Assembly (NCBI GenBank): GCA_020348985.1
Contig: CP070761.1
Coordinates: forward strand, 1,764,591-1,828,590
Source: Candidatus Thorarchaeota archaeon
GTDB taxonomy: Archaea; Asgardarchaeota; Thorarchaeia; Thorarchaeales; Thorarchaeaceae
Direction: 5' to 3'
DNA length: 64,000 nt
Part shown: positions 3,028 through 31,762 of the stretch, piece by piece
Position numbering within the stretch: position 1 is the stretch's first letter
How the letters are laid out: each line of letters opens with the position of its first letter
The notes under the pieces: model-generated
Database searches by the model: none
What the model was told of the DNA's origin: nothing
Seen by the model: only the letters and a program-made list of their open reading frames with translations
Position numbers and translations under genes: made by a program

Positions 3028-3046
3028 ATGGCGCCGAGGATGAGAT
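3028..3046 (-). repeat. Direct repeat of the tRNA-Ser 3' end (att-like)
   Basis: atggcgccgaggatgagat matches 3824-3842 (atggcgccgagggtgagat) at 18/19. Confidence 0.75.
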
Positions 3047-3176
3047 TGGGCTTACATTGAGGCTTCATCTCTCACAGGATGCTTTTGATTAAGTTCAACT
3101 AGCTCGAAATGCAACTGGTCAACCGTGTTTCTCAAGCACACTAGCGCTCCCAGAACCAGTGGACTGAGGATGTCAC

Positions 3177-3728
3177 TTATGATTTTGGATTCTCACTCTG
3201 CCTGGTCAAACTAGGGTCTTCCTGTTCACCTGGAACTGGGGAACGGTATCCAAGCTTCTTGAGAGTTTCATATAGGAATTTGCTGGAGTCAATTGATTCT
3301 GATGTTCTCCAGCGCCCTGCTATCTTTGTTTGAATAGGTTCGATTTTCTCCCACCATGCCATGGCAATTACTGCCATTGCTTCAGGAATTAGTTCCGCAT
3401 CAGTAATTTTGACTTCTAGTAGCTTTCCCATAGAGTCAAAAAAGGAGCTAACATGGACGAACTTTGCCCAATCTTTCCGACTGGCTGTTGGCCCATATTT
3501 TGCCATGAACTGTTCATAGTTGCCCCAGCTCCACTCACCAACAACTTCGAACAAGCTCTCAAGGAACTCCTGGTCGGCCTGTTTATGAAAATCCAGGAAT
3601 ATAGATGCTCGTCTTGACTTTGCTAGGTTTCTAATAGAAAGGACACTCATGATAACTCCTACCACGACGCTCATTGCTGCTACAATTACCGAAATAGTCT
3701 GTAAGTCTAACTCCTGCATGAATGCCAC
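3177..3728 (-). CDS. Membrane-anchored hypothetical protein (DUF4760-like)
   Basis: N-terminal TM helix, W...F..KYGP and FF..MG.L pattern. Confidence 0.65.
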   Translation of the reverse strand: MAFMQELDLQTISVIVAAMSVVVGVIMSVLSIRNLAKSRRASIFLDFHKQADQEFLESLFEVVGEWSWGNYEQFMAKYGPTASRKDWAKFVHVSSFFDSMGKLLEVKITDAELIPEAMAVIAMAWWEKIEPIQTKIAGRWRTSESIDSSKFLYETLKKLGYRSPVPGEQEDPSLTRQSENPKS

Positions 3729-3824
3729 CCGACATCTCTTGTGTAACCTGATGGGAAGAATCTCTCATATAAAAGACCTATCCGCATTTTCTGTGGCTGG
3801 GCATATCCTGGGGTAATGAGAAAA

Positions 3825-3974
3825 TGGCGCCGAGGGTGAGATGTGTTCAATCTCGTCGAATTGACGAAATTCTTGAACTCACGCGTCCATAGGACACTGG
3901 TTTGCTTGGTCATCAGCTTCGGAAGAAACTGGTATTCAAGACCAGCGCCTTAATCCGGGCTTGGCTACCTCGGC
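3825..3974 (-). tRNA. tRNA-Ser(UGA) with two introns: 37/38 (3903-3934, 32 nt) and T-loop 58/59 (3843-3872, 30 nt)
   Basis: Acceptor GCCGAGG/CCTCGGC-G-CCA; anticodon arm CTGGT-CT TGA A^A-ACCAG; long variable arm. T-loop intron has BHB geometry (GTTC/GAAC, bulges AAG and ACA) and splices to GTTCAAAT. Confidence 0.92.
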
Positions 3975-4072
3975 ATGATTCTCCCCACCTTTGGGGACAT
4001 TCAGCAGTGAATCTTTGGGAACTCCTTTTAAGCTTCGTGTAGCGAATAGCTGGGAGACGGAGAGCATCAAGC

Positions 4073-4504
4073 TTGGATCGAGGGTTCAGATTCCACGAAC
4101 ATACGGCGGATATCATTGTCGAATGTTGGGCACCTACACTATCAGTTGCATTCGAGGAGGCCGCCCTTGCGACTCTGGAGGTCATTCTTGATACCAAGAC
4201 CGTCGATCCACTTAATCCGGTCAGCATAGAAGTCAATGGTATTGACCGGAAGGAACTACTAGTCGAGTGGATAGGTAGGATAATTGCCCTAATTGACATC
4301 AATCAGCAATTTTTCTCGAAGTTTGAGATAGAGCGACTAGAGGAAGTTACAGGATCGTATGTCCTGAATGGCACAGCTTGGGGTGAATCGATAGATCTTG
4401 ATAAGCATGACACAAAAACAGAGGTCAAGGCTATGACCTATGCAGACCTACGAATAATTGATGAAGAAGGCAGGGTTACGGTCTGGTTCACTTTGGACCT
4501 CTAG
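4073..4504 (+). CDS. Archease (RtcB cofactor)
   Basis: EHTAD and EVKAMTY motifs, C-terminal DL. Confidence 0.93.
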   Translation: MDRGFRFHEHTADIIVECWAPTLSVAFEEAALATLEVILDTKTVDPLNPVSIEVNGIDRKELLVEWIGRIIALIDINQQFFSKFEIERLEEVTGSYVLNGTAWGESIDLDKHDTKTEVKAMTYADLRIIDEEGRVTVWFTLDL

Positions 4505-4518
4505 GATGTGTTGACGGA

Positions 4519-5376
4519 GTGAGCTTGAATGTTGCAATCCCGGATACTTCTCTTTCAGAGAGTGGTGATCTTCGTCAGAAGACAATCAAGGCTGGGAGAA
4601 TTGGCAGAGCTCTCGCGGTCTTTCGTGTAGAACATGCAGTTGTATATGACTCCGGTCTCTTGGACGATTCCATGTCTCAGGATGCGAATCTGCTGGTCAA
4701 GCTTCTCCGATATTTGGATACACCACAGTATCTACGCCGTCGAGCATTCTCACGTTCATCATCGCTGAAGTACGCCGGGCTACTCCCTCCTCTGAGAACA
4801 CAAAGCCATCCCCTAGCAGCACGAATTTCTGATCTCGCTGAAGGCGACATTAGATGGGGCATTCAGCTTCGACCGGGGAAGGTAGATCTGGGCCTGGACA
4901 AGCCGTTGAACTATGAGGGAAGAGTCAGCGAGAGGAATCCAACCCTCTTTGAAGTGACAAGCCCGCCTCCTAATGTTAAGCTCAATCAGATAGATCGAAG
5001 TGATGTTCCCCGATACTTTGGCTTTGAGGTGACGCGAGAAAGCAACTTGGTGAAGTGGCTAAAGGATATGGCAGGCACTACTAGAGTAGGCCTGTCCAGA
5101 AACGCTACAGAGTATGAGAAGCTCGAGAACGATCTCAAAACTACGGTTGAAGGAACCCTATCAGTTCTGGCAGTCTTTGGAGGTCCCGACCACGGTGTTC
5201 AGGAAGTAATCAAGTCAATGGGCGCATCGCCCTCCGAGTGCATCGACTTTTGGCTGAACGCTATACCGGGTCAGGGAACAGAGACTGTAAGGCTCGACGA
5301 GGCACTTCTAGTGAGTCTGGGCCTTCTCAATCATTCGCTAGGACGTTTCGTGGCAAAACCAGGGTTCTATGAATAG
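4519..5376 (+). CDS. SPOUT RNA methyltransferase (DUF171/MTH1-like)
   Basis: IGRALAVFRV, TPQYLRR, GLLPPL, FGGP, QGTETVRLDEA. Confidence 0.9.
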   Translation: MSLNVAIPDTSLSESGDLRQKTIKAGRIGRALAVFRVEHAVVYDSGLLDDSMSQDANLLVKLLRYLDTPQYLRRRAFSRSSSLKYAGLLPPLRTQSHPLAARISDLAEGDIRWGIQLRPGKVDLGLDKPLNYEGRVSERNPTLFEVTSPPPNVKLNQIDRSDVPRYFGFEVTRESNLVKWLKDMAGTTRVGLSRNATEYEKLENDLKTTVEGTLSVLAVFGGPDHGVQEVIKSMGASPSECIDFWLNAIPGQGTETVRLDEALLVSLGLLNHSLGRFVAKPGFYE

Positions 5377-5434
5377 TCTCAACGAAAGCAAGAAAAGCAC
5401 AGAGAGGTGCAGAATTCAGAAGAAGGATTCAGCT

Positions 5435-7801
5435 ATGCTCTCTGATAGAGTAGAACGCTTGAGGAAACAGAGCGTTCGTACAAGGCCCTATATCTCCACA
5501 GAGCGAGCACAGCTGCTAACCGATTTCTATCAAAGTGGTGCCAGTAGCGGCGTGTCGGTACCTATCGCACGGGCTCTTGCTTTCAAGCATATTCTGTCAA
5601 ACATGACTATTGGCATAAATGATGGAGAACTGATAGTTGGTGAACGTGGGCCGGTGCCCAGGGCCACACCAACATATCCGGAACTATGCTGTCATAGTCT
5701 CCAGGATTTCTCGATACTGAACTCAAGAGAGAGATCCAGATTCATTGTGAGTGAAGAATCACGCAGAATCTATGATGAAGAAATCATCCCATTCTGGAAT
5801 GGCAAGACTATGAGAGAGAAGGTCTTCGCGGCAATGTCAGAAGAGTGGATGAGGGCCTTCAATGCAGGAGTCTTCACAGAGTTCATGGAACAAAGAGCAC
5901 CAGGTCACGCAATTCTTGATGACAAAATCTACCACAAGGGATTGAACGATTTCAAGCATGAAATCGAGGCTCAGATTGGCACTCTAGATTCTGAGAATGA
6001 TCCTGATGCAGATGCAAAGGAACAGGAACTCCGGGCTATGGCGATAACAGCTGATGCGCTGATAGTGTTTGCACATCGACATGCAGATAGAGCAAAAGAA
6101 ATGGCGGCCAAGGAGTCGAATTCAGAAAGAAGAACCGAGCTTGAAAGGATTGCAGATATTTGCTCGCATGTTCCTGCTAATGCTCCAAGGAATTTCTGGG
6201 AAGCACTACAGATGTACTGGTTTATCCATCTGGGAGTTATCCTAGAATTGAATGTATGGGATTCCTTCAACCCGGGTAGACTAGATCAGAATCTCTATCC
6301 TTTCTACAAGAGAGATCTTGAGTCAGGGCAATTGGACGAAACGACGGCCAAAGAGCTGCTCCACTGCTTCTGGATCAAATTCAATAACCAACCTGCTCCA
6401 CCAAAAGTAGGTATCACAGAAGAACAGAGTGGAACCTATCAGGACTTTGCGTTGATCAATTCTGGAGGTCTGAAACAAGACGGGACAGATGGTGTTAACG
6501 AGCTCTCTTTCCTCATTCTGGACGTTCTGAAAGAGATGCATCTCATGATGCCCAGTGTGTGCATCCAGTTAAGTGAGAAGAATCCAGATGAGTTCCTGAA
6601 AAGAGCGATTGAAGTCATAAATGAAGGATTTGGACAGCCTTCTGTTTTCAGCACTGATACTATAATCAAGGAGTTTCTACGTGCTGGAAAGTCACTTGAA
6701 GACGCTAGGTCTGGTGGTCCTAGTGGCTGTGTGACAATCAGTGCATTTGGTAAGGAGAGCTGCATCCTTACGGGGTACTTCAACTGGCCGAAGATTCTTG
6801 AGATCACACTCAACAATGGTTTCGATCCGAACACCAAACAGCAGGTAGGACCACAGACCGGAGATCCATTGACATTCATATCGTACGAGGAGCTCTTCAA
6901 CGCATATACTGCTCAGCTGAGGTATTTCATTGATCTAAAGATTGAAGGTAACAACATCATCGAACGTCTTTATGCCGAGGAAATGCCTGCACCATTTCTT
7001 TCTATGCTCTTTGATGACTGTATATCAAAAGGGAAGGATTACCACGATGGTGGACCTAGATACAAAAGCACCTACATCCAAGGCGTAGGATTGGGCACTG
7101 TAACTGACTCTCTCTCCGCAATCAGATACCATGTCTTTGACAGGAAAGACATCAATATGAAAGACCTTCTGGAGGCCCTTTCCACTAATTTTGAAGGGGC
7201 AGAGAAGACTCGCCAAATACTCTTACAGCGAACTCCCAACTTCGGAAACGATGACGATTATGCCGACTCTATCGCCCAGGAGGTCTTCAATGTCTATTTC
7301 GAAGCGCTTGACGGCCGTCCTAACACAAAAGGCGGAGAGTATAGAGTCAACCTCCTTCCAACCACAGTACACATCTACTTTGGCCAAGTTACGGGCGCCA
7401 CTCCCAACGGAAGGGCAGCTTGTGCACCGCTGTCTGACGGGATCTCACCGAGTCCCGGTGCCGACAAGAATGGACCCACCGCCGTCATCAAATCCGTGGC
7501 AAAGATTGACCATGTCAAGACAGGCGGAACACTGCTGAATCAGAAGCTCTGGCCCCAGTTACTAGCCAGCAAAGAGGGCTTTGAGAAGCTGGCTCATTTG
7601 ATTAGGACCTACTTCCGGATGGAAGGGCATCACATACAATTCAATGTAGTCGACGCAGAAACCCTGAAACAGGCCCAACTGGATCCCGACTCACACAGAG
7701 ACCTCATTGTTCGTGTTGCAGGTTACAGCGACTACTTTGTGGACATAGGTAGAGACCTGCAGGACGAGATTATCGGTCGAACCGAACATAAACGATTCTA
7801 A
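5435..7801 (+). CDS. Glycyl-radical enzyme, trans-4-hydroxy-L-proline dehydratase (HypD)-like
   Basis: FTEFMEQRAPGH, SGTYQDF, SGCVT (CxE altered), LTGY, LPTT, RVAGYS glycyl loop; probable start ATG 5435. Confidence 0.85.
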   Translation: MLSDRVERLRKQSVRTRPYISTERAQLLTDFYQSGASSGVSVPIARALAFKHILSNMTIGINDGELIVGERGPVPRATPTYPELCCHSLQDFSILNSRERSRFIVSEESRRIYDEEIIPFWNGKTMREKVFAAMSEEWMRAFNAGVFTEFMEQRAPGHAILDDKIYHKGLNDFKHEIEAQIGTLDSENDPDADAKEQELRAMAITADALIVFAHRHADRAKEMAAKESNSERRTELERIADICSHVPANAPRNFWEALQMYWFIHLGVILELNVWDSFNPGRLDQNLYPFYKRDLESGQLDETTAKELLHCFWIKFNNQPAPPKVGITEEQSGTYQDFALINSGGLKQDGTDGVNELSFLILDVLKEMHLMMPSVCIQLSEKNPDEFLKRAIEVINEGFGQPSVFSTDTIIKEFLRAGKSLEDARSGGPSGCVTISAFGKESCILTGYFNWPKILEITLNNGFDPNTKQQVGPQTGDPLTFISYEELFNAYTAQLRYFIDLKIEGNNIIERLYAEEMPAPFLSMLFDDCISKGKDYHDGGPRYKSTYIQGVGLGTVTDSLSAIRYHVFDRKDINMKDLLEALSTNFEGAEKTRQILLQRTPNFGNDDDYADSIAQEVFNVYFEALDGRPNTKGGEYRVNLLPTTVHIYFGQVTGATPNGRAACAPLSDGISPSPGADKNGPTAVIKSVAKIDHVKTGGTLLNQKLWPQLLASKEGFEKLAHLIRTYFRMEGHHIQFNVVDAETLKQAQLDPDSHRDLIVRVAGYSDYFVDIGRDLQDEIIGRTEHKRF

Positions 7802-7949
7802 TCAATCGAGGGCCTAATTGGTCAGTGGGGAAGTTTTAAAAACGGAACCTCCTCTTGCGCGCGCTGTAGAACGAATAGCCCAGTCTGAAGACTATTCGAT
7901 ATATTGACTATGAACGGAACTGGGCTGCAAAACTACGGGTGAATTTGTA

Positions 7950-8957
7950 ATGGCGCATAGAAAGAAGCAGGCACCAAGACGCGGCAGTCTTGCATATCTG
8001 CCACGAGGTAGGGCTTCTCGGTTTATTCCCCGGATAAAGAATTGGCCTGAGTGGATCGAATCATCTGCAAAGCTACTTGGCTTCATAGGATTCAAGGCTG
8101 GCATGTCACACGCTGTGATGACTGTTCAACACCCCAACAGTCCGTTCAAAGGACAGGAAAGAGTCATCCCTGTGACAATACTGGATACTCCACCAATTCG
8201 GCCCTTTAGCATTCGAGGATTGAAGGCAACACCCTACGGCCACAAGCAGGTCACTGAGGTGTTGACAGAGAATCTATCTGACGATCTAAGAAAGACGATG
8301 CCTTTGCCAAAGGAATATGATCACGACGCCAAGATGGCTGAGTTCGAATCCCATCTAGACTCACTTTCTGAGATTCGAATGTTGATTCATACACAACCTA
8401 GACTTGCGGGAGTTGCAAAGAAGAAGCCCGACATCTGTGAGTACAAGATTGGTGCCCCGAGCGTTCAGGAGGCCTTCGATTACGCCAAGGAAATACTCGG
8501 TACAGATGTCAGAATAGCTGACGTCCTGAACGAAGGAGTCCTAGTAGACTCGATAGCAGTCACAAAGGGCCACGGATTTCAAGGTCCAGTGCGTCGATGG
8601 GGCGTTAGAATCCTCCAGCACAAATCAAGAAAGACCAAACGTGGCGTTGGCTGTATCGGGCCATGGTCCCCTACGAACATCCGGTACAGTGTACCGAGAC
8701 CTGGCCAGACAGGCTTCCACACACGCACCAGCTTCAACAATGAAGTATTGAGAATGGGTGAGCGTGGCGAGGAAATCACGCCTCCTGGTGGGTTTGTGAA
8801 CTACGGTGTGATCCGAGGAGACTATGCCATATTGTGGGGATCCATTCCTGGTACTGTCAAACGGCCTGTAAGATTGAGGTTTGCCATCCGCCCCTCGAAG
8901 TCGCATCTGGGTCAAGTGACCCAGGTTAGCTACGTTAGTACGACATCGAAGCAATAG
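7950..8957 (+). CDS. rpl3: 50S ribosomal protein L3
   Basis: PRRGSL..PR.RA, GFKAGMSH, TKGHGFQGPVRRWG. Confidence 0.98.
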   Translation: MAHRKKQAPRRGSLAYLPRGRASRFIPRIKNWPEWIESSAKLLGFIGFKAGMSHAVMTVQHPNSPFKGQERVIPVTILDTPPIRPFSIRGLKATPYGHKQVTEVLTENLSDDLRKTMPLPKEYDHDAKMAEFESHLDSLSEIRMLIHTQPRLAGVAKKKPDICEYKIGAPSVQEAFDYAKEILGTDVRIADVLNEGVLVDSIAVTKGHGFQGPVRRWGVRILQHKSRKTKRGVGCIGPWSPTNIRYSVPRPGQTGFHTRTSFNNEVLRMGERGEEITPPGGFVNYGVIRGDYAILWGSIPGTVKRPVRLRFAIRPSKSHLGQVTQVSYVSTTSKQ

Positions 8958-8971
8958 GAGGAGAAATGTAA

Positions 8972-9760
8972 ATGTCAAGCGTCAAGACATATTCGTTGAA
9001 AGGCAAAGCAGGACCTCAGGTAACGCTACCGGAGCACTTCGGCACACCTTATCGCCCCGATTTGATAAAGAGGGCAGTCCTGGCCGTACAGTCACGCAGA
9101 CGTCGGCCACACGGAGTTGATGAGCTGGCTGGCAAACGCACGACAGCTCAAAGCTGGCAGACTGGCCATGGAAGATCTCGTATTCCGCGTGTGAAGGGTA
9201 GAGGAACACCAGCCGCCAATTTGGGGGCATTTGCTCCTGGAACTGTTGGAGGCCGAGTTGCTCATCCTCCGGAAGCACGTAAGGTGATTGTTGAAAGGGT
9301 CAACAAGAGAGAGAATCGTCTAGCTATCCGTTCGGCAATTGCGGCCACAGCCAACAAGGAGGTTGTGGAATCCAGAGGGCACAAGATAGAATCAGTACCT
9401 GCAATTCCTCTTGTGGTTGCCGACACGCTAGAAAGCCTGACCACTACCAAAGAAGTCAGAGCAGTCGTCTCGGCATTGGGACTTGAGGAGGACCTATTGA
9501 GAGCGACTAATGGCCGCAAGGTTCGGGCCGGAAAAGGGAAAATGCGTGGTCGAAAGATGAAGACACCCAAGTCGTTCCTGATTGTTGTTGGACAAGACCT
9601 CGGAATTGGTTTGGCAGCACGCAATTTGCCAGGCGTCGATATAGCTGAAGTACACGGACTTAATGCAGAGTTATTGGCTCCAGGAACACATCCTGGACGT
9701 TTAGTACTCTGGACCAAGTCTGCCATAGAGCGGCTTGGGGGAGAAGGACTTTTCATGTGA
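8972..9760 (+). CDS. rpl4: 50S ribosomal protein L4
   Basis: RPDLIKRAV, GGRVAHPP, RAGKGKMRGR, LAPGTHPGRL. Confidence 0.98.
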   Translation: MSSVKTYSLKGKAGPQVTLPEHFGTPYRPDLIKRAVLAVQSRRRRPHGVDELAGKRTTAQSWQTGHGRSRIPRVKGRGTPAANLGAFAPGTVGGRVAHPPEARKVIVERVNKRENRLAIRSAIAATANKEVVESRGHKIESVPAIPLVVADTLESLTTTKEVRAVVSALGLEEDLLRATNGRKVRAGKGKMRGRKMKTPKSFLIVVGQDLGIGLAARNLPGVDIAEVHGLNAELLAPGTHPGRLVLWTKSAIERLGGEGLFM

Positions 9761-9770
9761 GGCGCTTATT

Positions 9771-10034
9771 ATGGTTGATCCAAATGTCATAATCATTCGC
9801 CCTATTGTCACTGAGGCAAGCTTGGAAGCTGTTGACAACGAGAACAAGCTCACTTTCTTTGTCATTCGTACTTCCAATAAGAACACAATCAAGTGGGCCG
9901 TGGAGTCCCTTTACGAGGTTGTTGTCGAGAAGGTCAACACGATGATAATGCCAGATGGGACGAAGAAGGCATTCGTGCGACTAGCGCCGGAGTACAGCGC
10001 AGCCGAAGTCGCAACAAAGCTGGGGATATTCTAA
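9771..10034 (+). CDS. rpl23: 50S ribosomal protein L23
   Basis: PIVTE, ENKLTF, VNT, KKAFVRL; start ATG 9771. Confidence 0.97.
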   Translation: MVDPNVIIIRPIVTEASLEAVDNENKLTFFVIRTSNKNTIKWAVESLYEVVVEKVNTMIMPDGTKKAFVRLAPEYSAAEVATKLGIF

Positions 10035-10046
10035 GGAGGGATTTCA

Positions 10047-10766
10047 ATGGGTAGACGTATTCTAGTTCAAAGAAAGGGTCGCGGTACAACTCAGTGGCGT
10101 AGTCCTAGTCACAAGAAAATCGCTCCTGCAAGACATCCCAAGTGGGCACCTGACAAGACCTACATCGGCAGAGTCATTGACATGCATCATGAATCTGGTC
10201 GTGGTGCACCTCTGGCTGAGATCAAGTATGAGGAAGAATCGAAAGTCCACTATATGGTTGCCCCGGAGGGGATATTCGTGGGCCAAGTCATTGAGTGTGG
10301 CCCAGATGCTGCATTGGCAAATGGTAACACACTGATGCTTGAACATATCCCAGAAGGTACTCCAATCTACAACATTGAAGGCAGTCCGGGAGACGGTGGC
10401 AAGTTTGTCAAATCCTCTGGTCTTGCTGCTACGATTATTTCTGCAGACAAGACCAAGGCTATGGTTCGTCTTCCAAGTGGGACCCAGAAGGCCTTCAGTC
10501 CACGATGCAGGGCCACAGTCGGAATTGTAGCCGGAGGTGGTCGCCCTGAGAAACCATTCCTCAAGGCTGGCACTGTGTGGCATCACACACGCGGAAAGGC
10601 TCGAAAATGGCCTGTCACAAGAGGTGCAGCAATGGTCGCAGCTTCACATCCGCATGGTGGTGGTTCACATCAATCACCCGGTAGACCGACGACTGTGAGT
10701 CGACATGCGCCGCCAGGTCGAAAGGTGGGCAACATTGCAGCCAGACGCACTGGTCGGAAGAAGTAG
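10047..10766 (+). CDS. rpl2: 50S ribosomal protein L2
   Basis: MGRRILVQRKGRG, HPHGGG, APPGRKVGNIAARRTG. Confidence 0.98.
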   Translation: MGRRILVQRKGRGTTQWRSPSHKKIAPARHPKWAPDKTYIGRVIDMHHESGRGAPLAEIKYEEESKVHYMVAPEGIFVGQVIECGPDAALANGNTLMLEHIPEGTPIYNIEGSPGDGGKFVKSSGLAATIISADKTKAMVRLPSGTQKAFSPRCRATVGIVAGGGRPEKPFLKAGTVWHHTRGKARKWPVTRGAAMVAASHPHGGGSHQSPGRPTTVSRHAPPGRKVGNIAARRTGRKK

Positions 10767-10783
10767 ACAACAACTGTAGAGAT

Positions 10784-10822
10784 GAAGAGGAGCAACCTCT
10801 TCTCTCACGATTTCTTCTTTTC
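10784..10822 (+). terminator. Hairpin plus pyrimidine tract after rpl2
   Basis: GAAGAGG-agcaa-CCTCTTC followed by tttcttctttt. Confidence 0.55.
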
Positions 10823-10913
10823 CAGCTCGCTTAGCTGACGTTCTAGTTCATGTCCCACCTGTATTACTCACAGCCATATCCTGAGAGTATGCAAATCCAG
10901 TTGGGACTGTTCC

Positions 10914-11099
10914 ATGCGACTCATTGCCGTCCATTTACCAGAGAGAATTGTCAGCGATATCGAGCGCTTAGTAGAGAAGGGACTCTATCCAAATCGGTCC
11001 GAAACAATACGGATTGCTATTCGAGACCTCCTGAAACGCGAGCTTTGGGATCGTGGTAATAGTGAGCACAAACCCGTGATAGAGGTGGCCAAAAAGTGA
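10914..11099 (+). CDS. cdrS: Ribbon-helix-helix regulator, CdrS-like
   Basis: VHLP...IERLVEKGLYPNRSETIRIAIRDLL; overlaps the ftsZ start by 4 bp, as in cdrS-ftsZ2 operons. Confidence 0.82.
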   Translation: MRLIAVHLPERIVSDIERLVEKGLYPNRSETIRIAIRDLLKRELWDRGNSEHKPVIEVAKK

Positions 11100-23662: not shown

Positions 23663-23819
23663 TTCTTCATTGCCACTCCGTCAACAGAAGACCAGGGCCA
23701 TTGCCTCTCTTAAGAAGTTGGCTTTTTGACGAAGGGAAAACAGATGACAAAGGTAAAAAGAAGAGCGTCAACTCTTGCGCCGACAACTTGAGAACTAGAC
23801 ATGCTTGGAGTGACCTAAA

Positions 23820-24188
23820 CTGAGGAAACGTGACGGAATCATCGTCTGGCCTGCATATCTTGACTCAACTCTAACTCGTGCTGAGGGACGAAGGATTCCC
23901 TCCAATTTGGCCGCCCCCGAAGTTACAGTGGAGATACTAAGAGAGGCAGCAGAATCGATTTCCTTCGAATACGAATTGGAGCCGGACAAGCTCTATCCAC
24001 GGAGCAAACGAGACCGGGCAGGCAAAGGATACTTGCTCGTATCCAATCCTCAGGGACACAAGAAACAGAGACTCCTGCTTATGTTAGCCAAAGGGGTTCG
24101 ACGGGCAGTCGCCAAGCGTGAGTCTGCGAAGCAGGCAGCAGCCAAGAAGAAGGAAACCAAGAAGGGGAAGAAGGGAAAGAGGCGATAG
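23820..24188 (+). CDS. srp19: Signal recognition particle protein SRP19 (apparent CTG start)
   Basis: RKRDGIIVWPAYLDS...EGRRIP...KLYPR; in-frame TGA at 23811 and SD-like GGAGTGA at 23807-23813. Confidence 0.9.
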   Translation: MRKRDGIIVWPAYLDSTLTRAEGRRIPSNLAAPEVTVEILREAAESISFEYELEPDKLYPRSKRDRAGKGYLLVSNPQGHKKQRLLLMLAKGVRRAVAKRESAKQAAAKKKETKKGKKGKRR

Positions 24189-24219
24189 TCCGCAGCCGCG
24201 GCTTTGGAGAGGAATCGCC

Positions 24220-24474
24220 ATGCGTCGACTCGGTAAGGTATTGCACATCTCAAAGCGCGGTGCTCTGATCCTTCGAACTGAGAAGACACCTCCAATGGGG
24301 AAGGAAGCCATCGTAGTGGACAAGAAGGTCCAAAAAATCGGATGGATACAAGACGTGTTTGGTCCAGTGAAGAATCCCTATGTCTCAGTCAAGCCATATG
24401 ACAAGATGGCCGCCGAGAAGTTGTTAGGTCAAATTCTCTATCTCTATCGGCGAAAAAGCACACCGAAGAGATAA
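24220..24474 (+). CDS. gar1: H/ACA RNP protein Gar1/Naf1
   Basis: LGKVLH, IG.I.DVFGPV.NPYVSVKP; start ATG 24220. Confidence 0.9.
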   Translation: MRRLGKVLHISKRGALILRTEKTPPMGKEAIVVDKKVQKIGWIQDVFGPVKNPYVSVKPYDKMAAEKLLGQILYLYRRKSTPKR

Positions 24475-24613
24475 TCTATTTGTCAAAAGAGCTATGCAAC
24501 AATGCACAGATGTGTACATTAAGCTTCAGAAATGAGAAGCACCTAGCAGCGAATTTATTTGGGTTGTTGCGAGATGTTTTCCGGTATCATGTGTCTAGTC
24601 CAGGGTCATCTCG

Positions 24614-24961
24614 ATGAACGAAATTGCGGATCAGATTATTCTCGCACTTCGAACGGTCGGAGTAGCTGGTCTTAGAATCGACGAACTGGCCACCAAACTA
24701 GAGATGAAATCCCAAAAGATAGCAACAACAATCACAAGATTGACCTCTGAGGGTTTGATAATGCAGAAACAAGAATCTGAAGGTGAAAGGTACGTCCTGA
24801 GTGGTAATCTTCCAGATGACCTAGACAATACTGGTGTTGGTGACTTGAACGGGTGTCCCTGTTTTCACTGCTTGAGAATTGGCAAATGCGGTGTGCGTCA
24901 ACCTGACTCCCCAGTCCGATGTAGGGAACTAGAAGAATGGATGTTAACTGACTCATCCTAG
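24614..24961 (+). CDS. tfeB: TFE-beta / RPC34-like factor (wHTH + Fe-S Cys motif)
   Basis: N-terminal wHTH and C-terminal PCFHC.....C......SPVRC..L.EW. Confidence 0.82.
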   Translation: MNEIADQIILALRTVGVAGLRIDELATKLEMKSQKIATTITRLTSEGLIMQKQESEGERYVLSGNLPDDLDNTGVGDLNGCPCFHCLRIGKCGVRQPDSPVRCRELEEWMLTDSS

Positions 24962-24976
24962 GCATCGCGTCTATTT

Positions 24977-25573
24977 CTAGCGGATTGGCCCAGAGGCCAA
25001 GAGATAGATCTCAGCGCTAGTCCTACGTGAAGCTTCGGGCTTCACAAGCCTAACAGAGTGAAATTGTCTCTTCACATTCGACAGAAACTCTTGGAATCCC
25101 TTTCCCTGAAAGACTTTGGTGAATACCTTGCCACTTGGTGTAAGGAGCTTCTGTGCAAGTTGAATCGTTGCTTCTACCAACGCGAGCTGTCTGACTGTGT
25201 CCAGTTCCCAGTTGCCACTTACTTTTGGGGAACAATCAGAAATGACAAGGTCGACTGAACCCTCAGTCTTCTTCTCTATCTCCATGACTGTCTCTGGATT
25301 AGTTATGTCTCCCTGAATGAAGCTGACATTCTTCATCGGCTTGATGGGGCTCAAATCAACTGCAACTACTCTCAAACCTGCATCAAGTTCGAGAAGCACC
25401 TGAGTCCAACTACCGGGAGCGCAGCAAAGATCTAGGACCTTGTTCACTCCTTTCAAGAGATGGTGCTTCGTTGCCACCTGTCTGAGCTTGTACGCACTTC
25501 TTGCTCTGTAGCCGTGTTTCTTTGCAGCTTGATAGTAGTGCTCTTTCGTGCGCGGTTTCTTCGGTCTTGGCAA
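24977..25573 (-). CDS. rlmE: 23S rRNA 2'-O-methyltransferase RlmE/FtsJ
   Basis: YRARSAYKL, DLCCAPGSW, SDCSP, KVF, SAEIY (K-D-K-E tetrad). Confidence 0.93.
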   Translation of the reverse strand: MPRPKKPRTKEHYYQAAKKHGYRARSAYKLRQVATKHHLLKGVNKVLDLCCAPGSWTQVLLELDAGLRVVAVDLSPIKPMKNVSFIQGDITNPETVMEIEKKTEGSVDLVISDCSPKVSGNWELDTVRQLALVEATIQLAQKLLTPSGKVFTKVFQGKGFQEFLSNVKRQFHSVRLVKPEASRRTSAEIYLLASGPIR

Positions 25574-25576
25574 GTT

Positions 25577-26785
25577 TCAGGCACGCTCCTGTGAATAATC
25601 CTTCAGTAGTTTGACTACTTCTGATTTCGGAGCATCAGTTCGAATCGCAGTGGATTTAAAGTGTGTTCGTGAAACACGGAATCCCAAATTGACCAGCATG
25701 AGTTTCAGTAGTTCTGTCTTGGGAGGAGGCACATTGTGCAAATCGCATAGAGCGTGGATGTCAGTATAGATGTAATCTGTCAGTGGCTCCTCTTCCACCA
25801 TCATGGCAAGAAGTCGTTCAACACTTGCATGAAACCAATCGAATTCCTTGATTGACTCTCCTGCGTGCTCAAGCATGGTTCTGTCATAAAGTGACCCAAT
25901 CCAGAGCGGACCCGCCGTCGTGATACTTCCCGAACAGCTCTCTGCTTGATGATTGAACCCCCCTGTGGAAGGGCCGTCTTGAAGACTGACTGTCTCAGTT
26001 GACATGCAGCTTGGACAGTAGTAAACGAATCCTATCTCCGATGCCTGCACGTTTGACTCTGTACGACTGGCCTTCACTCCTATCCAAGCCCGGATGAAGT
26101 GTTCAGAGCTAAGAACTGCCAATGGTCTAATTGATCTATCATTCAATCCGGCAACACGATATGCCAAACCTAGCAGAAGTCTTACCGCAATTTCGTGCGA
26201 GAAAGGACTTCGAAAAGAGTATCCGCCATATCGACGCATTGCCACATCGGGCCAGACTCCACATAGGGCAGGCATGTCCGTGGCAGTCAATGCCAGCAGT
26301 CCATTTCGGGGGTTTAACGACTGAATTGCAGCATTCAGAAAGGGCGCCGGCGACCCAAACGGGTCTACGTCGACGTAGTCAAACCTCTTTCCCCTTGACT
26401 CGGAGATGAGGAGCAGTTTCGCATCTCCTTTCTTTGCTTCACACCGATCCTGGAAACCTAACGTCTCAATGTTTTTCGCAGCCATCTCAACAGCAGTAGG
26501 GTTTGCATCAAACATCAAAGCTTGGAAATTTCCTGGAACTTCATTCAGATATCGTAGTGTTCGAACACCAGAACCTGCCAATGGCTCACAGAGAAGGTCT
26601 ATCTCATTGTCTCTAATGTATGTGTGAAGGAAGATTACGGAGAAATCACGATTAACTCTCATTCTTGGATTCATAAATACTGGAAGACTAGATGTTGGCT
26701 GTTGCTTATCCTCACTATAGTGGTCAACATCTGCACTTACGAAGGTAGTCTTGCCCTCCGTGTATTCTTTTGTGCGTATCATCAC
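25577..26785 (-). CDS. trm1: tRNA (guanine26-N2)-dimethyltransferase
   Basis: VF.NP.M..NRD, GSGVR.LRY, DVDPFGSP, TATD, GPLWIG, RTHF. Confidence 0.95.
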   Translation of the reverse strand: MMIRTKEYTEGKTTFVSADVDHYSEDKQQPTSSLPVFMNPRMRVNRDFSVIFLHTYIRDNEIDLLCEPLAGSGVRTLRYLNEVPGNFQALMFDANPTAVEMAAKNIETLGFQDRCEAKKGDAKLLLISESRGKRFDYVDVDPFGSPAPFLNAAIQSLNPRNGLLALTATDMPALCGVWPDVAMRRYGGYSFRSPFSHEIAVRLLLGLAYRVAGLNDRSIRPLAVLSSEHFIRAWIGVKASRTESNVQASEIGFVYYCPSCMSTETVSLQDGPSTGGFNHQAESCSGSITTAGPLWIGSLYDRTMLEHAGESIKEFDWFHASVERLLAMMVEEEPLTDYIYTDIHALCDLHNVPPPKTELLKLMLVNLGFRVSRTHFKSTAIRTDAPKSEVVKLLKDYSQERA

Positions 26786-26891
26786 CTAGCAATCAAAAGA
26801 ACCATGGCTTTGCTAATAAGAGTGCTTCAGTGTCCAACCCAGAACGTTTTAACAATGTCATGCTTGCGGTGTGAATAGGAGTTTTCTCAGC

Positions 26892-27380
26892 ATGACAACC
26901 AAAGTAAGAATCGAAACGAATCGTGGCACCATTGTGGCTGAACTCTGGCCTGACGACGCCATAAACACAGTGAAAAACTTCGTCACATTGACACAGAAAG
27001 GGTACTACGACGGTGTTACCTTCCACCGAGTAATCGACAATTTCGTCGTTCAAGGTGGAGACCCCACTGGTACCGGAAGTGGTGGCCCGGGATATGCCAT
27101 ACCATGTGAGACTCGTGGTCACAGGCAGAAGCATGATGATGGGATTCTCTCGATGGCTCACGCAGGAAGAGACACCGGTGGGAGTCAGTTCTTCATTTGT
27201 CTCAGTAGAGAATCCACAAAGCATCTCGATGGCAAGCACACAGTTTTCGGGAAGGTGACCGAAGGCCTGGATGTCGTTCATGAAATAAAACAAGGCGATC
27301 AGATGTTGAAGGCTGAGGTCTTAGAGATAGATTCTTCTGTCGAAGCTCATGAGCTGAAGACACTGAAGTCCTGGCGCTAA
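26892..27380 (+). CDS. Cyclophilin-type peptidyl-prolyl isomerase
   Basis: FHRVI..FVVQGGDP, SMAHAG.DTGGSQFFI, HLDGKHTVFG. Confidence 0.95.
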   Translation: MTTKVRIETNRGTIVAELWPDDAINTVKNFVTLTQKGYYDGVTFHRVIDNFVVQGGDPTGTGSGGPGYAIPCETRGHRQKHDDGILSMAHAGRDTGGSQFFICLSRESTKHLDGKHTVFGKVTEGLDVVHEIKQGDQMLKAEVLEIDSSVEAHELKTLKSWR

Positions 27381-27478
27381 GATTTCTTTCTTGATGTGTC
27401 CCGGTTTGGGTCACATCATCCTGCATCTTTTGCTATCCTACAGCAAAGCCTAAATATGTCGTACTTAACGATGTTAAA

Positions 27479-29644
27479 TTGGAGTTGTTTATGTCTTCAG
27501 TCGTTTTCCTATCAGTGGCTATCTTCTCAGGCCTTCTCTCGATTCTAGTCTCAGTTCTAACCTTTCGCAGGGTCATGAAGTACGATGAAGGCGATGACAA
27601 GATGAAGAGTGTGAGCGCTCTAATCGAAGACGGCGCATACTCATTCATCAGAATTCAATATAGAACGCTGCTGATCTTTATGGTCATTCTAGCCTTTCTG
27701 ATTGCGGTGTCCTTCGATTGGCTCGGAGTTCCGATAGCAATCTCGTATGTCCTTGGATCCCTCTCGAGCATGATTGCAGGATATGTCGGCATTATTGTCG
27801 CAACTAGGGCGAACAGAAGGACTGCATCGGCTGCCGCAGCAGGCGGTCTTAACCCTGCATTCAATGTAGCCTTTAGAGCTGGCTCAGTGATGGGTTTGAT
27901 GATTGCAGGACTTGCTCTCACAGGACTTGGTTCCCTCTATGTTGTTTGGGATTTTCTATTTCCGACCGGAAGTAGCATCGAGCTATGGGAGATTCTAACT
28001 GGGTTCTCTTTCGGGTCAAGTACAGTGTCCCTTTTTGCCAAGGCTGGAGGTGGCATTTACACGAAGACTGCTGATCTTGCCGCTGACATAGTTGGCAAAA
28101 TCGAGTATAATATCCCTGAAGATGATCCAAGAAATCCGGCGGCCATTGCTGACGCTGTCGGTGACAATGTCGGTGATGTTGCTGGCACTGGTGCAGACCT
28201 CTTTGATAGCAACATTGCAGCAATCCTAGCCGCAGCAATTCTTGGAGCCGCCATAGATGTTATGCTAGCAACCCCGCTGCCATTTGGTCTATTACCTCTC
28301 TTCATCGCAGCTTTGGGAACCCTTGCATCAGTCATAGGTGTGTTCTTTGTACGTGCTTCATGTGACGAGGATAGGGTCCCTTGCGAAGCAGACCCAGGTC
28401 CCGCGTTGAACAGAGGCACCTACCTGACAACAGTGCTTTTTGCCATAATCACACTAGTCGTCATCACTATTGTGGGAATAGACCTTGTTATTGCGATAGC
28501 AGCGATACTTGGCCTACTAACCGGTGTTATCATTGGTTTCACATCAGATGTTTTCACTAATGACAAGGGCTTGGGAGGATTCAGGCCAGTTCCCAACATG
28601 GTCGACTCAGCAGAGAAGAGCGCAGCCAATCTAATTCTATCAGGCTACTCGTACGGCCTTCTAAGTGCAGTTCCATCTGTTCTGATAATTGCCATTGCCT
28701 TGGTTGGTTCATTTACACTAGGATCATTGACAACCTCACCGGGGCTCGGCGGATGGCAAGGAGGATTATATCTCGTTGCAATTGCTGCAGTTGGTCTGCT
28801 TTCCACAAATGGTATGGTCATGAGTTCTGACACCTATGGCCCAATAGTTGACAATGCCAGAGGCGTAATCGAACAATCTGATGCAGCAAGGAATGCGATA
28901 ATCGTCGCCGACCGGCTGGATGCTAGCGGGAATACTGCGAAGGCGATTACAAAAGGATTCACTATTGGCGCCTCGGCAATATCAGTTCTCGCACTATTTG
29001 CTGCTTTCATTCAATCTGCCCGAGATTTTGTTGGAGCTGATATTGTCGTCAATTTCGCAGACCCATTCATTCTGTCTGGTGCCTTCATAGGAGCACTTGT
29101 TCCTACCGCCTTCTCTGCAATATTGATTCTTGGAGTAGGACGAAACTCAGAACGAATGATAGCCGAGATACGTCGACAATTTCACGAGGACCCTGGCATC
29201 CTCGAAGGAAACTCCAGTCCTGACTACGACCGATGCATTGGACTGGCCACATCAGGAGCTATCAGAGAGTTACTTCCTGGCACGGTCATTGCAGTCGTTG
29301 TCACTATATTGACAGGTGCTGTCTTGGGTTTGGAAGCACTTGCCGGTTACCTAGGAGGTGCTGTAATAGTTGGACTCATCATGGCACTCCTGATGGATAA
29401 TGCGGGTGGAGCTTGGGACAATGCAAAGAAGATTATCGAATCACCTGTATCACCCATCCCAAGTGACGACCCACGATACATAGAGTATCATAATAATGCA
29501 GTTCTAGGAGACATGGTTGGTGATCCATTCAAGGACACAGCGGGGCCCAGCATCAATACGCTTCTCAGTGTCATCTCACTTACGGCCATTCTGTTCCTAC
29601 CCCTGATTTGGGCAGCTCACGTCTGGTTGATTGGTCTATTATGA
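27479..29644 (+). CDS. hppA: Membrane H+-translocating pyrophosphatase (K+-independent signature)
   Basis: GGGIYTK.AD, PEDDPRNP, DNVGDVAG, DTYGPIVDNA, GNTAKA, GDPFKDTAGP. Confidence 0.95.
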   Translation: MELFMSSVVFLSVAIFSGLLSILVSVLTFRRVMKYDEGDDKMKSVSALIEDGAYSFIRIQYRTLLIFMVILAFLIAVSFDWLGVPIAISYVLGSLSSMIAGYVGIIVATRANRRTASAAAAGGLNPAFNVAFRAGSVMGLMIAGLALTGLGSLYVVWDFLFPTGSSIELWEILTGFSFGSSTVSLFAKAGGGIYTKTADLAADIVGKIEYNIPEDDPRNPAAIADAVGDNVGDVAGTGADLFDSNIAAILAAAILGAAIDVMLATPLPFGLLPLFIAALGTLASVIGVFFVRASCDEDRVPCEADPGPALNRGTYLTTVLFAIITLVVITIVGIDLVIAIAAILGLLTGVIIGFTSDVFTNDKGLGGFRPVPNMVDSAEKSAANLILSGYSYGLLSAVPSVLIIAIALVGSFTLGSLTTSPGLGGWQGGLYLVAIAAVGLLSTNGMVMSSDTYGPIVDNARGVIEQSDAARNAIIVADRLDASGNTAKAITKGFTIGASAISVLALFAAFIQSARDFVGADIVVNFADPFILSGAFIGALVPTAFSAILILGVGRNSERMIAEIRRQFHEDPGILEGNSSPDYDRCIGLATSGAIRELLPGTVIAVVVTILTGAVLGLEALAGYLGGAVIVGLIMALLMDNAGGAWDNAKKIIESPVSPIPSDDPRYIEYHNNAVLGDMVGDPFKDTAGPSINTLLSVISLTAILFLPLIWAAHVWLIGLL

Positions 29645-29719
29645 TACTGGACATCTCTGTCCAATCAGACGATTTATGGGGGGCCAATTTACAGAGCCAA
29701 ACCAGAGGTGGGAATCCCT

Positions 29720-30610
29720 ATGCCCCTTAGGTTTGGTATAGAATATCCCAGATTCGAAGACACCTTGCCACGCATCTTCACTGACGGTGTTCTAGACATC
29801 AGTCGACTCGATGCCGTTGAGATAATGAGAGAGAAGGTTGGACTTGGATACGAAGTAATAGAAGTCACACTGGATTTCGCTAGCATCCTCCCAACTGTTC
29901 TGACGCCAGAGTCTGTCCAGAAGCTCGCAGATCTGAAGGACGAATTGAAACACTCGTATACAGTGCATCTTCCCCTCTGGTCGGTCGAACCCGCTACTTT
30001 CAACGAAGAAGTTCGAAAAGGCAGCGTTGACAGCACTGTGAATGCCATTGAGTTAGCCGAACCATTGGATCCAGAGACATACGTACTTCACGCAACCGGT
30101 TCCCTTGGCGCCGAATTCTCACGCCTGAATTTTTCACCGGATGCCGTTGACTTGATCTGCATGTACATGACGACATATGCTTCAACCAGTCTGGAGGAGA
30201 TAATAGCAAAGTCAGAGATTGACACGAAGAAACTGGCACTGGAGAATGTGGAGTTTCCATTCAGATTCACGAGGGAGCTAGCCGACGAATATGACACGGG
30301 CATTTGCTTTGATACAGGTCATCTAATGGCGAGGTACTCAGGTGACGAGTCCCTTTCGGAATTCTACAAAACACACAAGGATAGAATCATTGAGATACAT
30401 CTACAAGATGGCTTCTACGGAGTAAAGAATGATGCAATAGTAAAGGATGATCACATACCAATAGGACGGGGTCAAATGCCGGTCAGAGAGTTTATGATGG
30501 AACTTGTGAAAGACAGATTCAAGAAGCCGGTAGTATTCGAGCTCACTGCCACGGAAGCAGAAGAGTCCAAGCAACACCTCAGGGAAGTTGTTCCCGAGGT
30601 TTTCGCCTAA
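29720..30610 (+). CDS. TIM-barrel metalloenzyme (AP endonuclease 2/xylose isomerase-like, CbiR-like)
   Basis: VHLP, LEN, FDTGH, EIHLQD, DH...G.G, VFE. Confidence 0.75.
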   Translation: MPLRFGIEYPRFEDTLPRIFTDGVLDISRLDAVEIMREKVGLGYEVIEVTLDFASILPTVLTPESVQKLADLKDELKHSYTVHLPLWSVEPATFNEEVRKGSVDSTVNAIELAEPLDPETYVLHATGSLGAEFSRLNFSPDAVDLICMYMTTYASTSLEEIIAKSEIDTKKLALENVEFPFRFTRELADEYDTGICFDTGHLMARYSGDESLSEFYKTHKDRIIEIHLQDGFYGVKNDAIVKDDHIPIGRGQMPVREFMMELVKDRFKKPVVFELTATEAEESKQHLREVVPEVFA

Positions 30611-30667
30611 GCCAAGATTTCTTGTCACAATCTTTTTATCCGGACCAAGCGTGCACCTTCCGTGCAT

Positions 30668-30771
30668 GGGCCTGTGGCATAGCCTGGAAAAACCACGTGA
30701 TGGTTTTGGGATCTTATTGCGCCGCTCTGATAAGGCGGATGTCGGGTGTTCAAATCACCCCAGGCCCACCA
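30668..30771 (+). tRNA. tRNA-Ile(GAU) with D-loop intron (30688-30713, 26 nt)
   Basis: GGGCCTG/CAGGCCC-A-CCA; CCGCT-CT GAT AA-GGCGG; GGGTG-TTCAAAT-CACCC; intron hairpin AAAACCA/TGGTTTT with bulges GGA and TCT. Confidence 0.9.
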
Positions 30772-31057
30772 TAATTCTTTCGAATCAACGTAGCCATGTT
30801 CCTAGGACTGTCTGATTCGGAAGCCCTCTTGCCGTAGTATGCGAAACACACTCATCTTCGCTTTCGTTCTCTGCCGTCTACTAAATTCATTCTAGTCTCC
30901 CGTTCCACTGAGGCTCAATGGCACCCCTCGTGGTCCGACATATGGCTGATCTTCTATGGTAGGCTTTGGAATTGTGATAGAGACAGAGCAAAACATGAAA
31001 ACTCACTTAAGCAGTCGAGAGGGATTTTGCCCTAGACTCGGTCTTGAGTGATGAGCT

Positions 31058-31762
31058 TTGGGTCTAGGCAGAGATGAAGCCACAAACGCGAATGTAGCAA
31101 AGAAGTATACACCTGCGATAGTTGGCCTTGTTATGTTTGCTGTTGCGCTTCTAGGTCCTGCGGGCATAGCAATAGCTGGCTCCAGAGAGATTCTCGTCGA
31201 CATCCTAGCCATGTCATGGCATTGGAACATCAGGGGCGGACTCATAATATATACACCATTCATGTGGTTTCAGACTCTTCCTATCAATGGCTTCAGATTC
31301 TGGCTTGCCTTCGAATTACTCAGGCACTACCAACGAAGGGTCACATTTCGGCGTGTGAAATGGGCGGCTGTTGCGAGTGAGGCGCCATATATTCTTATGA
31401 CCATCTTCTACATGATTATGTTCTTTCGATTATCACCCTCCTTTTACATTGCTATTGTTGGGCCATCTCTGGTGCTTCCATTCACTGGATGGGTCTTGAT
31501 GAAGGTAAAACCACCTCCTCGGGAACCAGAGATTTGGGATGGGCTTCCGGACACAGACTCTTGGTGGGACCAAACCAGAGACCCCCCTCTGAACGAGGCT
31601 CCTCAAGATATTTCCGCAGATAAGGCGGATGTCGGGTGTTCAAATCACCCCAGGCCCACCACTCAGTTTCTGACTGGTTCTCCTTCTATCAATGCCACTA
31701 GAAACCCAGGAGCGATTCCCTCTTGGCCACTGAATCGAGCATTCCTCCGCCATCAACATTGA
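31058..31762 (+). CDS. Multi-pass membrane hypothetical protein whose 3' end reads through a tRNA fragment
   Basis: About 4-5 hydrophobic segments and a PPP...W......WW tail; later residues are encoded by the tRNA-Ile repeat and overlap the SDR gene. Confidence 0.6.
   Translation: MGLGRDEATNANVAKKYTPAIVGLVMFAVALLGPAGIAIAGSREILVDILAMSWHWNIRGGLIIYTPFMWFQTLPINGFRFWLAFELLRHYQRRVTFRRVKWAAVASEAPYILMTIFYMIMFFRLSPSFYIAIVGPSLVLPFTGWVLMKVKPPPREPEIWDGLPDTDSWWDQTRDPPLNEAPQDISADKADVGCSNHPRPTTQFLTGSPSINATRNPGAIPSWPLNRAFLRHQH
31619..31661 (+). repeat. Exact 43-bp direct repeat of the tRNA-Ile 3' half (att-like)
   Basis: GATAAGGCGGATGTCGGGTGTTCAAATCACCCCAGGCCCACCA is identical to 30729-30771. Confidence 0.95.

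Follow-up and report, generated by a model that had tools for sequence, protein, structure and literature searches.

Why should two tRNA genes of a single archaeon each be followed by one co-oriented gene and then by a spare copy of the tRNA's own 3' end, in a genome where a search for the usual recombinases draws a blank? The question is raised by a stretch of 64,000 nucleotides from a Candidatus Thorarchaeota archaeon (GenBank assembly GCA_020348985.1, contig CP070761.1, positions 1,764,591 to 1,828,590), hereafter called the window, in which this arrangement occurs at tRNA-Ser(UGA) and again at tRNA-Ile(GAU). In the reading favored here, to which we assign a probability of roughly 0.6, both loci are members of a large population of small cassettes that dock 3' of tRNA genes and are moved by a site-specific event supplied in trans. 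The window lies within a 122-kb contig of a metagenome-assembled genome (MAG; G000 among the genomes compared) that comprises about 131 contigs joined by N runs and is 86% complete.

Two tRNA-bounded cassettes in the window

Only tRNA-Pro and tRNA-Thr are called in the window by ARAGORN and Rfam; tRNA-Ser(UGA) and tRNA-Ile are missed by both programs because they hold non-canonical introns. The Ser locus consists of the following parts, where TM stands for transmembrane:

3824..3975, minus strand: tRNA-Ser(UGA) gene, intron-containing (variable-arm region and T loop), CCA encoded
3842-3871: T-loop intron of tRNA-Ser(UGA)
3046..3823, minus strand: cassette body, with a promoter-like TTTTATAT box, a DUF4760-like gene and a 3' spacer
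3177..3728, minus strand: cargo gene, 183 aa, one N-terminal TM helix, co-oriented with tRNA-Ser
3028..3045, minus strand: spare tRNA-Ser 3' exon closing the cassette (T-stem 3' strand, acceptor 3' strand, discriminator and CCA)

The 3' exon of the tRNA gene (18 nt, 3824-3841) agrees with the spare copy at 3028-3045 in 17 of 18 positions, or over 24 nt at 88% when the flank is included, and the two repeats lie 796 bp apart. Orthologues of the tRNA gene align in the related genomes G009 and G010, and that of G062 is called as tRNA-Ser(tga) by ARAGORN. The cargo protein matches Pfam family PF15956 (DUF4760) with an E value of 2.8e-5 over 120 of 141 profile positions, at 24.8 bits against a gathering cut-off of 25, and a paralogue elsewhere in the MAG reaches 24.6 bits against the same cut-off. 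The TTTTATAT box is conserved upstream of the start codon in the DUF4760 unit and may act as its promoter.

The Ile locus is built in the same way on the opposite strand:

30669..30772, plus strand: tRNA-Ile(GAU) gene, CCA encoded
30729..30771, plus strand: identity block copy 1, from anticodon base 34 to CCA, within the tRNA-Ile gene
30773..31618, plus strand: cassette body, a 285-nt upstream region and the cargo gene
31058..31762, plus strand: cargo gene, 4-TM protein, co-oriented with tRNA-Ile
31619..31661, plus strand: identity block copy 2, the spare 43-nt tRNA-Ile 3' segment and closing end of the cassette

The two blocks form an exact direct repeat of 43 nt, 890 bp from start to start. 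ARAGORN recognizes the gene as tRNA-Ile(gat) once a D-arm intron of ~27 nt is removed, Rfam scores it at 28.9 bits (slightly below the cut-off), and the orthologue in G018 is intron-less. The cargo protein has four TM helices and a C-terminal PPPxExxPW..WW motif, with zero matches in Pfam; in alignment its family-homologous part stops near 31573, and the remaining open reading frame continues through the 31619-31661 repeat. By profile the family comprises 565 cluster representatives, is Thorarchaeota-specific in the Atlas and frequently occurs in tandem copies (window 31058-31573; L030 2239-4760; L032 2441-2989; L033 2809-4584), while a word-based homologue search with the same protein returned the query alone.

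The anatomy is common to both loci. The distal end of the cassette is a copy of the tRNA 3' segment, running from a fixed point to CCA and a pyrimidine-rich trailer, and the intact tRNA stays proximal; the fixed point is the first T-loop bases in tRNA-Ser and anticodon base 34 in tRNA-Ile. An earlier note on this DNA had described the layout of tRNA, one co-oriented gene and 3' repeat at both places, with repeat spacings of 796 and 890 bp and membrane-associated cargo, and this description is confirmed throughout, the cargo having one TM helix at Ser and four at Ile.

The tRNA-Ser site across related genomes

A search of 86 related genomes with the tRNA-Ser 18-mer, for which a control pattern gave 0 matches, disclosed same-strand pairs or runs of the 18-mer 0.3-4 kb apart in at least 19 of the 86, belonging to five genera. 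In these cassette-bearing genomes, tRNA-Ser(UGA) is followed by one to five fragments, the maximum of five being reached in G018. As exactly one tRNA 5' end is present per locus wherever it falls on the contig piece examined (17 of 19 loci), the further copies of the 18-mer are fragments. A reading of them as parts of split tRNAs or as alternative 3' exons was set aside, there being no matching 5' halves and too many copies per tRNA. The cargo at this one site falls into ~22 unrelated protein clusters, including TIR, OLD-type ATPase, LRR, formamidase, NosD and TPR proteins as well as unknowns, and the genes occur in both orientations.

Close relatives differ at this site by whole units. In the window's own genus, ELP3, tRNA-Ser and archease adjoin one another directly in G009, and G010 has an abhydrolase gene, the tRNA-Ser fragment at the same place beside it as in the MAG, and then four 4-TM genes in place of the DUF4760 gene; these four are homologous, by alignment, to the cargo of the Ile cassette. 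Three congeners of another genus, whose flanks are 88-91% identical, hold the following:

G062: LigT
G066: LigT, then epimerase
G064: DUF4760, then epimerase

The abhydrolase gene of the window is itself variable:

2191..2979, minus strand: alpha/beta-hydrolase gene, distal to the Ser fragment, between ELP3 and the fragment

It is present in G010 and absent from G009 and G081, where ELP3 directly adjoins tRNA-Ser. The gene is part of the variable zone and may represent an older cassette, now fixed, whose own fragment has disappeared.

Exchange of whole units between genera

The 796-bp cassette of the window is 79.5% identical to the second cassette of G042 over 756 nt, an alignment that begins with the first base following CCA and extends as far as the fragment, and 78.3% identical to the G064 cassette over the initial 641 nt of the latter, whereas the housekeeping flanks in these comparisons are 66-68% identical. 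At third codon positions, the DUF4760 cargo of the MAG has an identity of 0.76 with that of G042 and 0.69 with that of G064, far above the 0.33-0.38 of the flanking archease, Trm56-like and PFL-like genes, from which it follows that the cargo moved horizontally as a cassette. The corresponding values across genera are 0.79 for a LigT-like unit and 0.64 for a nitroreductase unit. The position of the DUF4760 unit also changes: it comes second in G042, first in G064 and is internal on metagenome contig L106, where it stands between two fragments and is followed by a nitroreductase unit and a third fragment. A 93% match between G037:C259 and G081 was dropped as transfer evidence, since the downstream flank is G081-like and the upstream flank is unlike G081; this contig (L072) is probably a chimera that switches lineage at tRNA-Ser. 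Exact-protein look-ups of the archease, the SDR gene and the nearest 4-TM relative returned nothing, or merely contigs of 2-3.6 kb.

At the Ser site, then, cassettes stack, and whole units are acquired, lost and traded, across genus borders as well; the Ile cassette would be expected to behave likewise. The earlier note's proposal of non-autonomous cassettes of ~0.8 kb is supported for Ser by the recurrence in three genera and on L106, the low synonymous divergence and the whole-unit differences, and for Ile would follow by analogy. DNA homologues of the Ile cassette body are absent from the 85 other family genomes, and the body has a 128-nt match to a paralogue inside the MAG itself. Neither the Ile 43-mer nor its last 23 nt has a real duplicate among the other family genomes, which makes tRNA-Ile a non-recurrent site in the 86. 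Both Ile block copies carry a lineage-specific A of the acceptor stem, and this shared base, together with the identity of the copies, suggests a recent event with a donor from the same lineage. Tandem 4-TM paralogues at 2.49 Mb of the MAG were examined as a further candidate and rejected as a plain tandem duplication with no tRNA-type cassette.

tRNA fragments elsewhere in the genome

The MAG was scanned with 20-mers from both ends of all detected tRNAs, at up to 3 mismatches and within 15 kb on either side. The scan yielded 10 non-paralogue matches, against ~0.07 expected by chance on our own calculation, with every 3' copy lying downstream of its tRNA and every 5' copy upstream. A 3' fragment is found 796-3682 bp downstream of 7 of the ~37 detected tRNAs, and each interval holds one gene, except for two at Ser(GCU):

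tRNA-Ser(UGA) fragment: spacing 796 bp, cargo DUF4760-like
tRNA-Ile fragment: spacing 890 bp, cargo 4-TM protein
tRNA-Gly(UCC) fragment: spacing 935 bp, cargo ATC-hydrolase-like
tRNA-Cys fragment: spacing 1086 bp, cargo luciferase-like oxidoreductase
tRNA-Glu fragment: spacing 1255 bp, cargo DUF362
tRNA-His fragment: spacing 1435 bp, cargo NosD-type beta-helix surface protein
tRNA-Ser(GCU) fragment: spacing 3682 bp, cargo B12-binding protein and octopine-type dehydrogenase
tRNA-Glu 5' fragment: 2623 bp upstream, cargo 794-aa NosD-type protein
tRNA-Val(GAC) 5' end with 12 nt of upstream flank, duplicated: 272 bp upstream, G000:C1:482378-482730 (L004)

Repeat lengths range from 18 to 43 nt. The blocks start in the T stem or T loop for Ser(UGA), Ser(GCU), Cys, Gly and the Glu 3' fragment and in the variable loop for His; the Ile block starts at base 34 of the anticodon loop, and the Glu 5' block ends within its anticodon loop. 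The tRNA-Val(GAC) duplication is a kind of repeat distinct from the 3' fragments. One of the 10 matches is a nearly full-length second tRNA-Leu(CAA), 1265 bp upstream of the annotated copy (G000:C1:1837936-1839313; L005), and is probably a second tRNA gene rather than a fragment. Further 3' fragments and orthologous loci with empty or alternative cargo, both of which the earlier note had proposed looking for, were found: the former at seven tRNAs of the MAG and at tRNA-Ser(UGA) in at least 19 of the 86 genomes, the latter as the bare site of G009 and the four 4-TM genes of G010.

Could such repeats be artefacts of faulty assembly at conserved tRNA words, or random matches? Contigs of MAGs can be chimeric at tRNAs, as in G037:C259, and a duplicate tRNA-Ile 3' end in G018:C16 (L105), which flanks a scaffold gap, was rejected as an artefact across that run of N. 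The 10 matches stand against a chance expectation of ~0.07, and for the window an assembly error is contradicted by a 122-kb contig whose flanks are consistent to either side, by cassette interiors that are unique and free of N, by the conserved position of the Ser fragment in G010, and by interior pieces of the Ile cassette that occur with 0 mismatches in contigs from the runs of two other studies. An artefactual or accidental origin is hardly credible in view of these points. Twenty sequencing runs were examined only as short low-depth contigs, which are uninformative on presence or absence; in them, cover of the Ile cassette interior is patchy and no contig joins across it. As a side observation, tRNAs are trouble spots in assembly, as both G037:C259 and G018:C16 illustrate.

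Recombinases and the possibility of eroded islands

The whole MAG has no match to PF00589, PF16795, PF00239, PF01548 (IS110), XerA, Cas1 or OrfB_IS605 (TnpB), other transposase families lying outside the search. For the families searched, the earlier note's statement that the window holds no integrase is thereby borne out and extends to the entire MAG, including for a stand-alone tyrosine recombinase; its premise that a tyrosine integrase had made the repeats gains no backing, as none is found in the MAG or in 57 of 86 relatives. A Phage_integrase (PF00589) match is present in 29 of the 86 family genomes and lacking in the other 57, near-complete ones included, as it is in 14 of the 19 cassette-bearing genomes. 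XerA is the usual archaeal chromosome-dimer resolvase, and the 57 genomes apparently do without it as well.

These data bear on the note's second explanation, according to which two large islands eroded independently: integrase-bearing viruses or plasmids would have decayed in place to one gene and an attR, leaving immobile relics. Integrase sublocations at the anticodon loop and T loop were reportedly described by Williams in 2002, and 3' duplications starting in these loops are said to be the classic footprint of tyrosine integrases. The Gly, Cys and Glu fragments of the MAG are decayed, as relics might be, and islands are known to contain degenerate partial tRNAs (preprint on tycheposons, 10.1101/2020.12.28.424599). 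Nevertheless, the same small Ser unit recurs with the same ends in three genera at low synonymous divergence, an outcome that independent decay cannot yield and that renders independent erosion of large islands unlikely. Likewise, ~45 Ser-site cassettes from 19 genomes yielded no integrase or integrase fragment, 12 integrase loci of the family were all without a neighbouring tRNA, and no integrase-bearing island at tRNA-Ser(UGA) was found in the relatives examined. On the Ser-site contigs of the 19 genomes, the sole integrase match is a weak one of 89 aa in G013, 7.4 kb upstream and hence on the wrong side. A pair of Ser matches 72 kb apart in G025, considered as possible island ends, proved to be two different full tRNA-Ser genes. 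Erosion is a poor fit to these findings, and we consider it decidedly improbable.

Fragment edges and T-loop introns

The edges of the fragments are informative as to how they arose. Across 26 fragments, the bases at -5 to -1 relative to the 18-mer agree with the T loop (TTCRA) in 46, 73, 73, 85 and 85% of cases, and conservation is at background from -6 onwards (-6 to -12); ~9 pyrimidine-rich bases follow the CCA. The drop at -6 defines a sharp left edge at T54/T55 and a repeat unit of ~23 nt plus trailer. Of the T stem and the acceptor stem, the fragments contain just the 3' strand in each case; the complementary strand of the T stem is missing. Such a sharp start in the T loop points to a site-specific event.

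In many fragments TTCAA is joined directly to the 3' exon even though the resident gene has a T-loop intron, which means that these fragments derive from intron-less alleles. The Ser T-loop intron adjoins the left edge of the cassette fragment; G066 has this intron and its close relative G062 does not (L081 versus L083). The intron may protect the insertion point.

The same edges permit an evaluation of homologous recombination acting alone, in which the tRNA and fragment, together with conserved neighbours, would serve as short homology arms after DNA uptake or cell contact. This process would be in keeping with the failure to find a recombinase and with the movement of units between genomes that share merely the tRNA sequence, and the identical Ile copies, lineage-specific base included, fit a donor from the same population. 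It predicts scattered edges, however, whereas the 26 fragments share one T-loop start despite bounding ~20 unrelated cargos; moreover, blocks of 18-23 nt are very short, and the first acquisition of a tRNA fragment by a new gene goes unexplained. Homologous recombination may well spread existing units, without accounting for the fixed edge, and as the sole process it appears unlikely indeed.

A candidate endonuclease family at tRNA genes

A protein family with two helix-turn-helix (HTH) and two HNH (CxxC...H...N...CxxCH) modules has matches in 32 of the 86 genomes, with up to 17 per genome. In at least six genomes, the first cassette immediately after tRNA-Ser is a gene of this family; a tRNA is found within 1.5 kb at 11 or more of 20 double-HNH loci, where ~5% would be expected; and in relatives these genes occupy the 3' flank of tRNA-Ser, Val, Leu, Asp and Thr (loci L108 (G037:C259:8184-9167), L109, L110, L111, L112 and L113-L119). 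These proteins are candidates for a homing nuclease directed at tRNA genes and for the engine of capture.

Capture free of any integrase can be envisaged on this basis: sequence-specific HNH endonucleases, encoded at tRNA 3' flanks, would cleave conserved RNA genes at one set position, the T loop for instance, and repair from foreign DNA would copy a cassette in. The cut-off 3' segment would be left behind the cassette and would then provide a portable second arm for later transfers, while T-loop introns would immunise the tRNA gene against the cut. Such a course of events would account at once for single-gene units at many different conserved genes, for fragment edges that are sharp, for genomes lacking integrases and for tRNA introns in odd places. 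We put it forward tentatively, as a rather unlikely alternative.

How a cassette might be inserted

Under the favored reading of site-specific movement in trans, cassettes of 0.3-4 kb, mostly with one accessory gene, would dock immediately 3' of tRNA genes in this Thorarchaeota family. Insertion at the fixed point would rebuild the tRNA gene and leave the duplicated 3' segment behind the cargo, whereupon tRNA and fragment would constitute portable ends for re-insertion into any genome having that tRNA. The inserting enzyme would be supplied in trans, because neither the cassettes nor the MAG encode a known recombinase. Two candidates for it stand about even. The first is a recombinase from an unbinned helper or of an unrecognised family, which suits block edges that fit integrase sublocations and sits uneasily with the lack of integrases near these sites. 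The second is break repair begun by the tRNA-associated HNH endonucleases, which is favored by their position and copy number, by the sharp edge and by the T-loop intron as an immunising change; on the other hand, the family is absent from the MAG, a duplication is not a product of classical homing, and the nuclease may itself be no more than cargo.

Several points weigh against movement in trans as a whole. We can only infer mobility for the Ile cassette, which has no counterpart elsewhere. The lack of integrases is weak evidence, as MAGs are incomplete and mobile elements often remain unbinned, and a double-HNH homologue was not found in the window's own genome. No circle, empty-site or junction contig came to light in the short low-depth contigs of the 20 runs, and the exact tRNA-Ile empty-site junction has 0 matches in metagenome contigs, a result that carries no evidential weight.

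Comparison with known systems

Integrons, among which we count sedentary chromosomal arrays and attC clusters that lack an integrase, are alike in having mostly one-gene units that end in a recombination-site-like repeat. These units form stacked arrays at a single chromosomal site, undergo shuffling from genome to genome, and have cargo of accessory, defence and surface types. The resemblance drawn by the earlier note goes no further, since IntI, a hairpin-forming attC and one common promoter are all wanting here: the repeat copies a host tRNA 3' segment, both orientations occur, some units apparently have promoters of their own, and there are many tRNA docks in archaeal hosts.

Among elements flanked by att sites, the CIMEs of Streptococcus are non-autonomous. 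Elements that accrete in tandem at tRNAs resemble the present cassettes in that direct repeats of the tRNA 3' end flank the insert, the intact tRNA stays at one end, older inserts are pushed outward, partial tRNAs lie scattered and edges fall at the anticodon or T loop. The tycheposons of Prochlorococcus, for example, show partial-tRNA arrays and tandem accretion (10.1101/2020.12.28.424599). Tycheposons and other tRNA-targeted elements, however, carry or adjoin an integrase, usually with replication or excision genes, and measure several kb to tens of kb, in contrast to units of 0.3-4 kb with no integrase in ~45 and hosts that mostly lack a tyrosine recombinase. Nor is there a counterpart to the tyrosine or large serine recombinase and the replication module of tycheposons, the MAG having no PF00589 or PF00239 match and the cassette genes being cargo only. 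In Sulfolobales and Thermococcales, 'suicidal' integrases of the SSV (Sulfolobus spindle-shaped virus) type have captured genes at tRNAs, with foreign genes trapped between tRNA fragments (PMC7253208, PMC8371274). This archaeal, tRNA-targeted trapping is similar in outcome; it leaves halves of the integrase gene at the insert ends, however, whereas none are seen here and the MAG has no match to PF16795 or PF00589.

Free-standing homing endonuclease genes include Seg and Mob of T-even phages and the HNH nickases in the tRNA region of phage T5. The double-HNH and HTH genes at the tRNA 3' flank of relatives are comparable, as would be their highly conserved targets, and a T-loop intron would destroy such a target; conversely, classical homing leaves no 3' duplication of the target, no HNH homologue was found in the MAG, and tRNA cleavage by the family is putative. 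Casposons encode the Cas1 casposase and a family B polymerase between terminal inverted repeats, insert at tRNA 3' ends and produce a target duplication of 14-15 bp. They share with the cassettes an archaeal insertion at or near tRNA 3' ends, target duplication and tandem arrays, and differ in that no Cas1 is found in the MAG and the duplications here are variable, at 18-43 nt. In Caldiarchaeum, a mobile element left behind a tRNA fragment and an intron (PMC3293823). The accounts of Asgard mobile elements consulted here cover large elements, viruses and aloposons at tRNAs, and such one-gene cassettes are not described there. The present units differ in that they are of one-gene size, have many docks, are exchanged cassette by cassette across genera and occur where integrases are lacking.

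Implications

The cassettes represent a concrete, recurrent route by which one-gene defence, surface and metabolic units are plugged in behind tRNAs and passed between genera, mostly without a tyrosine recombinase. Should the enzyme turn out to be a new recombinase or a homing-type nuclease, a principle of gene capture parallel to that of integrons would be at hand. Protection has long been proposed as a role of tRNA introns in archaea, and we know of no attacker that matches the idea; if the present reading is true, non-canonical tRNA introns would have an explanation open to testing, in that they would shield the site of insertion. In practical terms, the fragments mark borders of the flexible genome in these MAGs and are also a source of chimeric assemblies.

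Additional observations

NosD-type right-handed beta-helix surface proteins that end in a C-terminal membrane anchor recur as cargo or neighbours at tRNA-His, Glu and Ser-GCU, and at Ser-UGA in G051 (L002 2671-3894; L003 3463-5847; L001 6651-8720; L078 3282-5444). Lastly, the window contains a 287-nt direct repeat of 70% identity, with copies 1978 bp apart at 35674-35960 and 37652-37938, in or beside an acyl-CoA synthetase/acetyltransferase-type gene (34092-35981); the copies probably reflect paralogous genes.

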